64,000 bases of DNA from IMG/VR virus record IMGVR_UViG_3300047357_000359, positions 1 to 64,000 of that record; one strand, written 5' to 3'. The notes under the pieces were generated by a model. It did not search any database. It had not been told where the DNA came from and saw only the letters and a list, made by a program, of their open reading frames with translations. The stretch is from a virus. Shown here in pieces: positions 4,792 through 30,277 of this stretch. Each line of letters opens with the position of its first letter. The stretch's first letter is position 1. A program made the position numbers and the translations under genes.

Positions 4792-4881
4792 TGGCGGAAG
4801 TGGTAGGATTCGAACCCACGGTAGAGTCACCCCTACGACGGTTTAGTAAACCGCTCCTTTAAACCACTCAGGCACACTTCC
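4792..4881 (-). tRNA. tRNA-Ser, anticodon ACT (A34)
   Basis: Acceptor GGAAGTG/CACTTCC, G73, encoded CCA, long variable arm, TTCGAAT T-loop, anticodon arm GCGGT-TTACTAA-ACCGT. Confidence 0.9.
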
Positions 4882-26004: not shown

Positions 26005-26032
26005 GAATGCCCCCGAACACTTCCGAGTGTTC

Positions 26033-26070
26033 AGAAAACCCTCTATAATGATGTAGAGGGTTTTCTTTTT
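26033..26070 (+). terminator. Intrinsic terminator
   Basis: AGAAAACCCTCTA...TAGAGGGTTTTCT followed by a T-tract. Confidence 0.75.
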
Positions 26071-26229
26071 GTTTCACTCTTGACTTTTGCTAAAACCTGT
26101 GCTATAAATAAAACTGTTTGTATAATTGTTCGAATTATGCAAAGCATGGAAGTTGGGCAACGTTGAGCCCAATCTCTTTTAACTTGTGAGCGATGTGGTA
26201 AAAGCATCAAGCAGATAGGAGAAATAATA

Positions 26230-27189
26230 ATGGACGCACTCACCCTATGGATGGCAATCGGATTTCTTTTCGCGGCCTATTCAGTAATAGCAAATGATTC
26301 AGTACAAACACTAGGTACATGGATCGCAAGTAATAACGATAAATTCAATTGGAAAATTATGTGGGGGTGTGCAAGTGCAGTTCTCCTTTATACATTGTGG
26401 TACGGTTGGACAGTAAATGGTGGAGACATCAGTTACGGTAGACTTAACAAGATACCGTTCCAAGAAATACAATGGTACCATGCGGCGGCACCAGGACTAC
26501 TATTAATACTAACAAGAATTGGCGTACCAGTGAGTACGTCATTTTTAGTTTTAAGTGCCTTTGCAAGTACATTTGTATTAGAGAAGATGCTCGTAAAGAG
26601 TATGATGGGATATGCAGTCGCGGCTGTGGCGGCATATTGTATTTGGATAGTGGTTACTAAACTACTAGATGAAGCAAAGCCTGTTAAAGAAGAACATAAG
26701 AAAGCATGGCGTGTAGCACAATGGGTAACAACAGGCTTCCTGTGGTTTACTTGGCTCAGTCATGACATGGCAAACATTGCCGTGTTCCTACCTAGAGAGA
26801 TACCTTGGGACTTAATGGTTATTATCTCACTTGTATTTGTAGGCGGACTTGCTTATATGTTTAAAGAAGGCGGAGGTAAGATACAAAAGATTGTTATTGA
26901 AAAGCACAATACAAGATATGTTCGTAGTGCTACTATCATTGACGGTGTGTATTGGTTGATCCTTTGGTTCTTCAAAGAGTATAACGATATACCTATGTCG
27001 ACAACTTGGGTGTTCGTTGGACTATTATGTGGACGTGAACTTGCTATGGCAACTATGACAGGCAAGGAAAAGTTCAAGACAGTATTTCCACTTGTAACTA
27101 AAGACTTCATTAAGATGATGATTGGCTTGGGTGCTTCTGTGGGAGTAGTGTTAATGATACACTATGTTATCGTACCAAACGGATATTAA
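26230..27189 (+). CDS. PiT/PHO4-like inorganic phosphate transporter-related membrane protein
   Basis: Duplicated signatures ANDSVQ...GVPVSTS and HDMAN...PMSTT; multiple TMs. Confidence 0.7.
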   Translation: MDALTLWMAIGFLFAAYSVIANDSVQTLGTWIASNNDKFNWKIMWGCASAVLLYTLWYGWTVNGGDISYGRLNKIPFQEIQWYHAAAPGLLLILTRIGVPVSTSFLVLSAFASTFVLEKMLVKSMMGYAVAAVAAYCIWIVVTKLLDEAKPVKEEHKKAWRVAQWVTTGFLWFTWLSHDMANIAVFLPREIPWDLMVIISLVFVGGLAYMFKEGGGKIQKIVIEKHNTRYVRSATIIDGVYWLILWFFKEYNDIPMSTTWVFVGLLCGRELAMATMTGKEKFKTVFPLVTKDFIKMMIGLGASVGVVLMIHYVIVPNGY

Positions 27190-27557
27190 AGTTTAATTTC
27201 TGTTAAACCATTTTCCCTATCAAGGTATTTAAAATCTATCTTGGTAGGGTTATATTTTTGCAACCAATCAAATACTATATTAGGATCAAATACTCCGCAA
27301 GTATATACATCAAGTTGTATCATAGCAGGATCTGTTTCATCCCATGTGTGTATTATAACATGACTAGTTTCTATAATAGTAGCAACAGTCAACCCTCTAT
27401 TACCTTTCATATTACAATATTTGGCATATGGTCCCATTAGGATCTTCATACCTATTGCTTCTATCAAGGCTTTTACATCATTACTTGTAAGGGTTTCATC
27501 TGTTGGCGGATTAGTAACTTCCGCTCGAATTATCACATGTTTGTGAACTAACTGCAT
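27186..27557 (-). CDS. speD: S-adenosylmethionine decarboxylase proenzyme
   Basis: IIETSHVIIHTW.E...LDVYTCG. Confidence 0.85.
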   Translation of the reverse strand: MQLVHKHVIIRAEVTNPPTDETLTSNDVKALIEAIGMKILMGPYAKYCNMKGNRGLTVATIIETSHVIIHTWDETDPAMIQLDVYTCGVFDPNIVFDWLQKYNPTKIDFKYLDRENGLTEIKL

Positions 27558-28608: not shown

Positions 28609-28682
28609 TGGCATAGGTGGAGGGAATCGAACCCCCATTAACTGGTTTGGAATCAGTTGTGTTACCATTACACCACACCCAT
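28609..28682 (-). tRNA. tRNA-Trp (CCA)
   Basis: Acceptor ATGGGTG/CACCTAT, G73, encoded CCA, anticodon loop TTCCAAA. Confidence 0.9.
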
Positions 28683-28719
28683 AAAAAAAGCCCCTAATAA
28701 AATTAATTACTAGGGGCTT
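28683..28719 (-). terminator. Intrinsic terminator directly upstream of tRNA-Trp (attenuator)
   Basis: AAGCCCCTAGTAA-TTAATT-TTATTAGGGGC-T7, abutting tRNA position 1. Confidence 0.85.
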
Positions 28720-28748
28720 CGCAATATAACTTTTTTTAGAAAGTCACA

Positions 28749-28802
28749 TCAAGACATACCCCTCAAGGGCCAACATAATTGTGTTCTGATAGTCTTTGAC
28801 AT
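28749..28802 (-). CDS. Putative leader peptide MSKTIRTQLCWPLRGMS (one Trp codon)
   Basis: 17-codon ORF with AGGA SD between the promoter (TTGACA-N17-TATATT, about 28838-28866) and the terminator. Confidence 0.65.
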   Translation of the reverse strand: MSKTIRTQLCWPLRGMS

Positions 28803-28862
28803 GTTTGAAATTTTCCTGTGTTCTTAGTTATACATATAATATAACATCTGTATTTAGTGTTG

Positions 28863-29243
28863 TCAACCTTTTATTTTAGATTTATAATCTTTTATTGCAG
28901 ATTTAATTGCATCTTCGGCTAGAACTGAACAATGTATTTTAACTGGCGGTAATGCAAGTTCTTCTACAATGTCCATATTCTTTACTGCTGATGCTTCGTC
29001 TAGTGTCATACCTTTAACCATCTCAGTTACTAAACTTGAACTTGCTATTGCACTACCGCAACCATAAGTTTTAAATTTAGCATCTGTTATTATACCTTCT
29101 TCAACTTCTATCTGTAGACGCATAACATCACCACATGCTGGTGCACCTACCATTCCTGTTCCTATATTATCTTTCTTTGGATCAAATGTTCCGACGTTGC
29201 GTGGGTTTTCGTAATGGTCAAGTACCTTTTCAGAGTATGCCAT
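28863..29243 (-). CDS. iscU: Fe-S cluster scaffold IscU
   Basis: MAYSEKVLDHYENPRNVG, GAPACGDVM, FKTYGCGSAIASSS, LPPVKIHCSVLAEDA. Confidence 0.97.
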   Translation of the reverse strand: MAYSEKVLDHYENPRNVGTFDPKKDNIGTGMVGAPACGDVMRLQIEVEEGIITDAKFKTYGCGSAIASSSLVTEMVKGMTLDEASAVKNMDIVEELALPPVKIHCSVLAEDAIKSAIKDYKSKIKG

Positions 29244-29286: not shown

Positions 29287-29386
29287 TGGCTCTGGGGGAA
29301 GGACTCGAACCTCCACGATAAATAATTTGCCGTCATTTACCACACGAGAAACAATCGTGCGTGTCTACCAATTTCACCACCCCAGA
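29287..29386 (-). tRNA. Atypical 100-nt tRNA-Asn (GTT) with very long variable arm
   Basis: Acceptor TCTGGGG/CCCCAGA, G73, CCA; D-arm GTGAAATTGGTAGACAC; anticodon arm CACGA-TTGTTTC-TCGTG; 28-nt variable region; T-arm GGAGG-TTCGAGT-CCTTC. Confidence 0.85.
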
Positions 29387-29392
29387 TTATTC

Positions 29393-30223
29393 TTATACTT
29401 TGTTAATCTTTTCTAGTGCAGGAATCATACGTGTTATACCTATGCCTCCGCCTACTCTTTGAAAGAAGTCAAACTCTAAGAACTTTTCTAGTTCCGCTTC
29501 AACTCTTTCCTTACCGAATAGTTTGAATAGTAACTCTGAATAAGCACCGTCTGTAATACTATGGAATGTATCACGCATCATATCAACATCACATGAACGT
29601 TCTGCTGATCCAATAGTTTCCATACCACCTAGTATAACGTCCATCTTCTTTGCAGTATTTCCGTCATCGTTTCTAGCCATGTTCCAGAAAGGTGATGTTA
29701 GTTCAGGGAAGTTTGTAATAAGTGTTTGACCAAACTCTTTTTCCATTGCAAGTTCGTGTTCTGCTTCCATTTCTGTATCAGCACTTAGTCCAAAGTGTTG
29801 TTGCCATTCAGCATAAGTCTTTTCTGTAATGTTGCCAAAGCCTAAGTATTCACATAGTTCATACTCCATTGCTTTTAGATCATCTACATTACCTGGCATT
29901 TCAAATTCAAACATTGGAAATATTATATCATGTCTGCCTGGTATTGCGTTTGGTTCCTGTCTATAGGAAGTGGAGACACAAAAAAACCCCTTACTATCGG
30001 GGCTACTTAATAATTCATGTTCTAACCACATCTGGCCTGTTTGCGGCAATGGCCAAACCTGGCCTGCGTAATTGTATGTTGCTACATTGAATGGATCTTC
30101 ACATGCGGCAAGTATGCTTAGTCTGTTTTGGGTATGGACTTCTAAAAATCCTTTATCCAAAAAAAATGACCTTAAAAGGCCAACTGTCTTCGTAAATTTA
30201 TTTGGGGATATCAACTGCGTCAT
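29393..30223 (-). CDS. Class IIb aminoacyl-tRNA synthetase paralogue (AsnRS/AspRS-like), catalytic domain only
   Basis: Motif 1 LRSFFLDKGFLEVHT, LPQTGQMWLE, motif 2 SYRQEP...RH...FPMFEFE, ETIGSAER, motif 3 GGGIGITR; no N-terminal OB-fold. Confidence 0.85.
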   Translation of the reverse strand: MTQLISPNKFTKTVGLLRSFFLDKGFLEVHTQNRLSILAACEDPFNVATYNYAGQVWPLPQTGQMWLEHELLSSPDSKGFFCVSTSYRQEPNAIPGRHDIIFPMFEFEMPGNVDDLKAMEYELCEYLGFGNITEKTYAEWQQHFGLSADTEMEAEHELAMEKEFGQTLITNFPELTSPFWNMARNDDGNTAKKMDVILGGMETIGSAERSCDVDMMRDTFHSITDGAYSELLFKLFGKERVEAELEKFLEFDFFQRVGGGIGITRMIPALEKINKV

Positions 30224-30277
30224 TTTCTTTTTTTCCTTTTCATTAGTCAAAAAAAATTTGCTCAACAAGTGCCGAGC

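Follow-up and report, generated by a model that had tools for sequence, protein, structure and literature searches.

A putative leader-peptide attenuator in front of the tRNA-Trp gene of uncultured, mostly marine phages

Leader-peptide attenuators of amino-acid operons, including his, leu, phe, thr and ilv, form a described class of regulators (PMC1183508). In the trpL attenuator, a short promoter-proximal ORF contains two cognate codons in tandem, ribosome position serves as the signal, and four RNA segments form the mutually exclusive pairings 1:2, 2:3 and 3:4, the last being the intrinsic terminator. The pheST attenuator of Escherichia coli, with its pheM leader, places a cellular gene for an aminoacyl-tRNA synthetase under leader-peptide control. 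T-box riboswitches report the state of one tRNA through transcription attenuation and bind the uncharged tRNA directly, without a ribosome or an ORF; we know of no described T-box that controls tRNA genes. Silent extra tRNA genes are found in the cryptic trn operon of Anabaena sp. PCC 7120, which is induced when translation is impaired (PMC8421152; PMC10272220).

Here, we present a locus from the uncultured virus record IMGVR_UViG_3300047357_000359, of which positions 1–64,000 were analyzed (the window, 64,000 nucleotides). The locus probably controls the phage's own tRNA-Trp by ribosome-mediated (leader-peptide) transcription attenuation, for which there is no experimental evidence. Its mechanism would be that of a classical attenuator; as far as we found, a tRNA, the sensed molecule, as the product and the phage setting are new. 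The locus shares with trpL the short promoter-proximal ORF with a cognate codon, the putative use of ribosome position as the signal, and four segments with predicted exclusive pairings that end in an intrinsic 3:4 terminator. However, it differs from trpL in that its output is a tRNA gene and not biosynthetic enzymes, and the product would therefore act directly on the sensed step. It has one Trp codon and not two in tandem, its segment 1 is the start-codon region, and the regulatory codon is located in the loop enclosed by the 1:2 helix. It is also phage-borne and lacks sequence or model similarity to trpL: neither Trp_leader (RF00513) nor other leader families of Rfam matched it at E up to 1, and nothing except tRNAs was detected near it at this threshold. 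The only Rfam leader match in the window is at 26030–26127, away from the locus and far below threshold. As in pheST, a part of the translation machinery for the sensed amino acid would be under leader-peptide attenuation, but the pheST output is a synthetase protein. A T-box, defined by a stem I with a specifier loop and by the T-box sequence, gave no Rfam match, and the locus is too short for one and bears an ORF. The Anabaena trn operon, in contrast, is controlled at the promoter by direct repeats and a repressor (PMC8421152), its description names no leader, attenuator or terminator (PMC8421152), and it sits on a cellular megaplasmid. No paper on a leader-peptide attenuator upstream of tRNA genes was found in the literature.

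The minus strand of the window carries, in order, iscU, a promoter, a Shine-Dalgarno sequence, a 17-codon ORF, the P2 hairpin, a terminator and tRNA-Trp, which is the sole tRNA downstream in the window. We refer to the elements from promoter to terminator as the cassette. The features are as follows.

28838–28866, minus strand: sigma-70-type promoter, 11/12 match, TG ahead of the -10 box
28866–28861 and 28843–28838, minus strand: promoter boxes, -35 TTGACA and -10 TATATT, with a 17-nt spacer that contains CTAAATA
28814–28817, minus strand: Shine-Dalgarno sequence AGGA, 11 nt 5' of the ATG; AAGGA at similar spacing in relatives
28749–28802, minus strand: leader ORF of 17 codons plus TGA (28751–28749), start codon ATG at 28802–28800, encoding MSKTIRTQLCWPLRGMS
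28792–28803, minus strand: 5' strand of P0, the start-codon region CAUGUCAAAGAC, pairing with 28755–28745; proposed region 1, anti-antiterminator
28772–28785, minus strand: P1 hairpin in the leader ORF (AACA / UGUU), ending in the UG of UGG
28770–28772, minus strand: single Trp codon UGG, the candidate regulatory codon, invariant in the cassette family
28758–28769, minus strand: C-run and G-run, with CCC at 28769–28767 after UGG and AGGGGU at 28763–28758 as the core of proposed region 2
28745–28755, minus strand: segment B GUCUUGAUGUG, containing the stop codon; its partner is the start region (in P0) or the 3' arm of the middle hairpin
28722–28751, minus strand: middle hairpin P2, 12 pairs in the window; top of the antiterminator
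28683–28720, minus strand: intrinsic terminator, 5' arm with GCCCC at 28720–28707, loop, 3' arm at 28700–28687, T7 tract at 28689–28683
28609–28682, minus strand: tRNA-Trp, anticodon CCA, CCA end encoded; found by ARAGORN, Rfam tRNA 62 bits

The promoter, Shine-Dalgarno sequence, ORF, TGG codon, terminator and tRNA-Trp match the positions given in the first-pass annotation base for base, and the CTAAATA motif it noted is present in the promoter spacer. The iscU gene (TIGR01999 match, 218 bits) ends at 28866, and its stop codon shares bases with the -35 box. The terminator stem at 28720–28687 has 14 pairs, of which five are G-C, and a predicted energy of -19.3 kcal/mol. The T7 tract directly adjoins nucleotide 1 of tRNA-Trp and therefore leaves no room for a separate tRNA promoter; the first-pass annotation had noted that, as written, the tRNA can only be made by read-through. 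Folding of the leader is more stable than expected by chance (z = -3.6, 200 shuffles).

Relatives of the cassette were first reached via IscU and have the same promoter, small ORF, hairpin and terminator upstream of tRNA-Trp. A scan of viral contigs with a pattern made from P2 and the terminator arm only returned 88 contigs. A metagenome scan with the P2 pattern yielded more variants and many chance matches, which were used as controls, and an ORF-anchored scan recovered variants with a different P2. In total, about 85 distinct cassettes were collected, all of them on contigs of uncultured, mostly marine, phages. At the equivalent site, 69 of 74 relatives have a promoter that matches at least 10 of 12 positions. 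A covariance model of the cassette detected exactly one copy per locus, with neither a second copy nor a copy before another tRNA in 0.8 Mb. In cultured phages the cassette was without a match, and only iscU, tRNA-Trp and a generic terminator-like stretch were matched; the conserved core of the cassette had no match in bacterial and archaeal genomes. The variants are related, and the family statistics given here therefore overstate independence.

Diversity among the tRNA-Trp genes behind the cassettes is high: the 46 distinct sequences share a median identity of 68% and fall into about 17 clusters at 85% identity, and some forms measure 85–91 nt. At locus L119, ARAGORN called no tRNA-Trp before tRNA-Cys; the DNA there starts like tRNA-Trp.

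The cassette is linked exclusively to tRNA-Trp. The first tRNA 3' of the cassette is tRNA-Trp(CCA) in every variant with sufficient downstream DNA, and no tRNA-Trp is located behind the 86 chance matches to the hairpin pattern. A strong hairpin followed by T6 abuts the tRNA in 42 of the 82 distinct tRNA-Trp contexts at the cassette loci and in none of the 307 contexts of other tRNAs in the same loci. Since the tRNA-Trp sequences are diverse, and the neighboring genes and the tRNAs after tRNA-Trp differ between contigs, the link outlasts synteny.

The hairpin and T tract could instead be no more than a terminator of iscU or a processing signal, next to a small ORF that arose by chance. The terminator is indeed 3' of iscU in the window, and RNA contigs from two studies, covering 28755–28946 and 28810–29007, extend from iscU into the leader with zero mismatches. 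These contigs indicate that the leader is reachable from upstream as well. The RNA data consist of assembled contigs only, provide no informative cover of the terminator or the tRNA, and prove nothing either way. In relatives, however, the whole cassette moves off iscU together with tRNA-Trp; additional genes separate iscU from the cassette in some of them, and the cassette therefore accompanies the tRNA, not iscU. Conservation also extends to the ORF, its frame and the Trp codon. This explanation appears already refuted as far as a comparison of sequences allows, and we give it almost no weight.

The leader ORF bears marks of a translated sequence. A Shine-Dalgarno sequence, a start codon, an ORF of 15–24 codons and a Trp at codon 10–12 are present in all 77 distinct variants first collected; relatives therefore do conserve an upstream small ORF with an invariant Trp codon, together with a terminator and a predicted competing antiterminator, before tRNA-Trp, a positive outcome of the test suggested in the first-pass annotation. 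UGG is the only invariant sense codon apart from the start. L150 has it in tandem, and in many relatives the G-run contains another UGG, whereas the window leader has a single one, as the same annotation cautioned. Although the stretch from UGG to the G-run is highly variable in sequence and length, 32 of 37 length classes preserve the reading frame that joins TGG to the conserved stop (p = 3e-11 for an expectation of one third, uncorrected for relatedness). In the exceptions, the end of the ORF shifts by a few codons in either direction and remains on or beside the same RNA segment. Trp and the stop are separated by residues that show no conservation. Because the G-run persists in more than one reading frame, it is an RNA signal.

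Both strands of P0 are altered in L293, L313 and L317, yet the start is GUG and the stop is UAA. The U and G of UGG form the closing pairs of P1 and never covary, while the inner P1 pairs change on both sides in many sequences, which points to a constraint on the codon that goes beyond base pairing. From these comparisons we infer selection for translation of the small ORF; the changes in L293, L313 and L317 are the strongest argument. Read-through of the UGA stop by abundant tRNA-Trp was rejected as a candidate. Across variants, the UAG in the terminator arm falls at random into the three frames relative to UGA (22/16/14), and therefore no read-through frame is conserved.

With Trp at residue 11–12 and a UGA stop in most variants, the leader recalls TnaC (PMC8429421), a type of peptide with Rho-dependent termination and a fixed spacing from the conserved Trp to the C-terminal Pro and the stop. 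An arrest peptide of this type would respond to free tryptophan, which would hold the ribosome at UGA through the Trp-bearing nascent chain and so set termination. However, the distance from Trp to the stop ranges from 5 to 12 codons, the intervening C-terminal residues are those without conservation, and some variants stop at UAA or UAG. The cassette terminator is intrinsic and not Rho-dependent, and the logic of such a peptide provides no tie to a tRNA gene. TnaC-like arrest is thus a highly improbable explanation of the cassette.

The terminated RNA, or off fold, is composed of P0, P1 in the ORF, a small hairpin of the C-run with the G-run, the top of P2, and the terminator. RNAalifold alone recovers the C:G hairpin, P2 and the terminator. 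In P0, a helix absent from the earlier description, the start region CAUGxUCAAGAC is base-paired to the stop region GUCUUGACAUG. The P0 duplex forms in all 62 distinct start/stop versions, with energies of -8.4 to -14.9 kcal/mol, and its changes are compensatory, as in L293, L313 and L317, in which the GUG start accompanies the UAA stop. We take P0 as the main anti-antiterminator, which competes with the antiterminator. The AGGGG segment was previously proposed to pair with the CCC after UGG; this pairing exists, but it is not the main anti-antiterminator.

In an alignment of 72 sequences, 96% of the off-fold cells are paired. Double changes occur in nine pairs and 70 cells, compared to 24 ± 6 cells in shuffles, and none of the 500 shuffles reaches 70. 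With a covariation score of 0.142, the fold exceeds the maximum of 0.044 reached with slid partners. Four of the six P1 pairs have double changes in relatives, as do two pairs of the terminator, whose family mean is -18.8 kcal/mol. Covariation in the alignment supports the putative off fold of P0, the P1 hairpin and the terminator. Of the two elements whose covariation the first-pass annotation suggested to check, the terminator covaries and the antiterminator does not.

This conserved and covarying fold (P0, P1 and terminator) also raises the possibility that the cassette, with a promoter and terminator of its own, is an independent gene for a micropeptide or for a structured small RNA (about 135 nt), the tRNA being made from a constant leak through the terminator and Trp kept for the peptide or the RNA fold. 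There are known examples of trans-acting leader peptides and of small RNAs derived from attenuators (PMC6614838, PMC7298713), and a CWPP motif is frequent in the relatives. A separate gene, however, leaves unexplained why the next gene is constant, even with very diverse tRNA-Trp sequences, why the terminator abutment is limited to tRNA-Trp, and why the G-run copies the terminator 3' arm and is kept across frames. The lack of conservation in the peptide between Trp and the stop also speaks against it. We therefore consider this an unlikely account, which retains about one chance in ten.

The putative attenuator requires an alternative, on fold. This antiterminator is a single long irregular hairpin, in which the G-run pairs with the terminator C-run and the stop region with the lower 3' arm of P2, with P2 on top. 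The pairing on which it depends, of AGGGGU (28763–28758) with GCCCCU in the 5' arm of the terminator, was pointed out in the first-pass annotation and is present. Before the terminator 3' arm is made, the antiterminator is the minimum-energy nascent fold in 72 of 74 variants (-12 to -24 kcal/mol), and it is also the predicted nascent fold in all nine variants with another P2 sequence. Variants found without the P2 pattern have P2 arms that differ yet are complementary (UUGACGU/ACGUCAA vs UUGACAU/AUGUCGA). On the main alignment, 95% of the cells of antiterminator pairs are paired, and the pairs are invariant; covariation therefore neither supports nor contradicts the antiterminator. It can only be said that the antiterminator is compatible with the sequences and is itself the predicted nascent-RNA fold.

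When the transcript reaches the P2 loop, P0 is predicted in 74/74 variants. In the full-length RNA, P0 is predicted in 71 of the 74 and the terminator in all of them. The predicted folding order fits the 1:2, 2:3, 3:4 scheme. In the absence of a ribosome and before the 3' arm, the antiterminator is slightly more stable in 67/74 variants, and because thermodynamics slightly favors it, the default state without translation is uncertain. P2 was also considered, and rejected, as a hidden promoter (TTGAC..TATTTT). Variants found without the P2 pattern lose the -10-like box and keep a hairpin with other, complementary arms, and a hidden start in P2 would leave the terminator intact anyway.

We propose that transcription begins at the sigma-70-type promoter or enters from iscU upstream, and that the 17-codon leader is translated. 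After prompt decoding of UGG, the ribosome would proceed to UGA and cover the G-run and the stop region. The terminator C-run would then be free to pair with the 3' arm, and RNA polymerase would halt in the T7 tract before the tRNA. A ribosome that awaits charged tRNA-Trp at UGG would instead separate the start and stop regions and prevent P0. Without P0, the G-run and the stop region may pair with the terminator C-run and the P2 3' arm to form the antiterminator. The polymerase would continue into tRNA-Trp, from which RNase P would release the tRNA. The product would relieve the stall, resulting in a self-limiting supply loop. The translation of the leader, the stalling at UGG, the switch itself and the rise of read-through under scarce charged tRNA-Trp are inferred. 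So is the trigger, which may be the loss of host tRNA-Trp during infection or through a tRNA-cleaving defense. Starvation for Trp would stall the ribosome too, but extra tRNA would not help then, which counts against the proposal, as does the presence of only one regulatory codon.

By established footprints, a ribosome covers about 12 nt past the first base of the A-site codon. In 60 of 74 variants the G-run starts 13 or 16 nt past the U of UGG, and in 66 of 74 it ends 7 nt 5' of the stop. Judged from these distances, in most relatives the C-run would lie under a ribosome that pauses at UGG, with the G-run only just exposed, and a ribosome at the stop would cover both the G-run and the stop region. 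From the short free linkers we infer that a ribosome located between the P0 strands should also hold them apart. The window variant has the shortest distance in the family, with a G-run that starts only 10 nt past the U of UGG. The caution that a stalled ribosome may partly cover AGGGGU is therefore justified. The window is thus a borderline case: stalling at UGG would leave about two of the four G's under the ribosome, and the predicted antiterminator falls to -12 kcal/mol and rests mostly on the long P2.

The leader codons can be compared with the tRNAs that follow tRNA-Trp. In complete arrays, the amino acid of the following tRNA is present in the leader in 76 of 82 cases, compared to 65.5 ± 2.4 when leaders and arrays are re-paired at random (p < 1e-4). 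Among leaders with a Cys codon, tRNA-Cys is present in 26 and absent from 20, and it is absent from all ten without the codon (0/10; p = 8e-4). For tRNA-Ile(UAU) and the AUA codon, the corresponding counts are 5 and 10 with the codon and 0 and 41 without it (p = 8e-4). No such matching was detected for the Glu, Arg(GCG), Gly, Lys and Ala tRNAs. A full matching of leader codons to tRNA arrays was thus rejected: it holds for Cys and Ile(AUA) only, is trivial for Pro and Ser, and fails for the other five. Owing to relatedness among the sequences, and to the location in P1 of the codon that precedes UGG, we regard the matching as a lead and not as a result. The first-pass annotation had asked whether other tRNAs possess leaders with their own cognate codon. 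No other tRNA type has an abutting terminator, and there is no second cassette, but Cys and AUA codons in the leader do accompany tRNA-Cys and tRNA-Ile(UAU) behind tRNA-Trp.

This co-occurrence also fits a switch that senses translation in general and not tRNA-Trp in particular, in which any slowing in codons 5–12 or failed ribosome loading would open the terminator. Few ribosomes, translation stress, a slow Pro-Pro bond or missing EF-P are possible causes. Structurally, it would make no difference where in the middle of the leader the ribosome stalls, Pro-Pro directly follows Trp in most relatives, and the nearest published on-demand tRNA genes respond to translation stress (PMC8421152). However, UGG is the one sense codon besides the start that never varies, tRNA-Trp is always the first gene after the cassette, and the window leader reads Pro-Leu after Trp, not Pro-Pro. 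A general sensor of translation is improbable, although it deserves to be kept in mind at somewhat better than one chance in ten. The Trp-specific attenuator remains our preferred reading. The interpretation given in the first-pass annotation, with its structural model amended as above, is supported by comparison, not by experiment.

We speculate, tentatively and with the odds rather against it, that the cassettes form a marine-phage family of leader-peptide sensors of the tRNA pool, which always read Trp and, where encoded, Cys and the AUA-reading Ile. Such leaders would provide a codon-by-codon readout and replacement tRNAs on demand, for example, after host tRNA decay or cleavage by defense nucleases. 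If true, the family would represent the first attenuator to make the very molecule it senses, and a built-in counter-defense circuit.

The purpose of phage tRNA genes has long been debated, over decades, with codon compensation, replacement of a decaying host pool, and escape from tRNA-cleaving defense as the candidates (PMC10264068, PMC11555353). Tryptophan has a single codon, and a phage tRNA-Trp therefore cannot correct codon bias. A demand-driven switch before tRNA-Trp points to supply or defense as the reason for the gene, and makes this question testable by a simple reporter. The attenuator would extend classical attenuation to tRNA genes, in a closed feedback loop of about 180 nt that could also be used as a compact device to sense how fast a chosen codon is decoded.

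The promoter of the tRNA-Trp cassette carries a motif in its spacer, at a site that is shared with related phages.
28844-28860, minus-strand promoter spacer: conserved NTAAATA motif, present at the same site in relatives

The sequence TATAAATA, which is similar to a T4-type late promoter, lies within or just after the cassette promoter in 32 of the 74 relatives compared.

The terminator is separated from tRNA-Trp by an element of 75-95 nt in about half of the related loci, which is not present in the window.
L004:2612-2703, related locus, not in the window: putative tRNA-like element

The fold of the element is a cloverleaf-like four-way junction, the stems of which covary. Its 7-nt loop, CUGCAAU, resembles a GCA (Cys) anticodon loop. 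ARAGORN called no tRNA in the element in the related loci, and it looks like a tRNA-like RNA lacking the D arm.

Other tRNA genes and a tmRNA gene lie in the window and its relatives.
29287-29386, minus strand: tRNA-Glu(CUC), 100 nt, called by ARAGORN with the anticodon at position 39
4792-4881, minus strand: tRNA-Ser with anticodon ACU, a tRNA call
L008:3420-3794, related phage contig: tmRNA gene with tag ANNNYAPEMALAA

The Rfam tRNA model matches tRNA-Glu(CUC) at 29290-29386 with only 44.7 bits, and the gene may contain an insertion or intron. The ACU anticodon of tRNA-Ser, with an unmodified A34, is unusual, and the same tRNA occurs in related loci L002 and L008. The tmRNA gene of L008 is positioned immediately behind iscU. 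The tRNA-Trp(CCA) genes downstream of the cassette are 85-91 nt long in L087, L150, L158, L137, and other related loci, and appear to have a long extra arm, unusual for tRNA-Trp.

Other features of the window are protein-coding genes and a junction of convergent genes.
26010-26066, both strands: terminator-like hairpins between convergent genes
27186-27557, minus strand: S-adenosylmethionine decarboxylase-like gene
28863-29243, minus strand: iscU, Fe-S scaffold gene
29393-30268, minus strand: 291-aa ORF

A far sub-threshold Rfam Phe_leader match at 26030-26127 overlaps the terminator-like hairpins and is most likely due to chance. The 291-aa ORF, located amid the tRNA genes, shows distant similarity to class II Asn/Asp-tRNA ligases or AsnA over their catalytic core. 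It shares 64-67% identity with the annotated 'tRNA ligase' proteins of Prochlorococcus myophages P-SSM2, P-SSM5, and P-SSM7. The S-adenosylmethionine decarboxylase-like gene and iscU are auxiliary metabolic genes adjoining the tRNA region.
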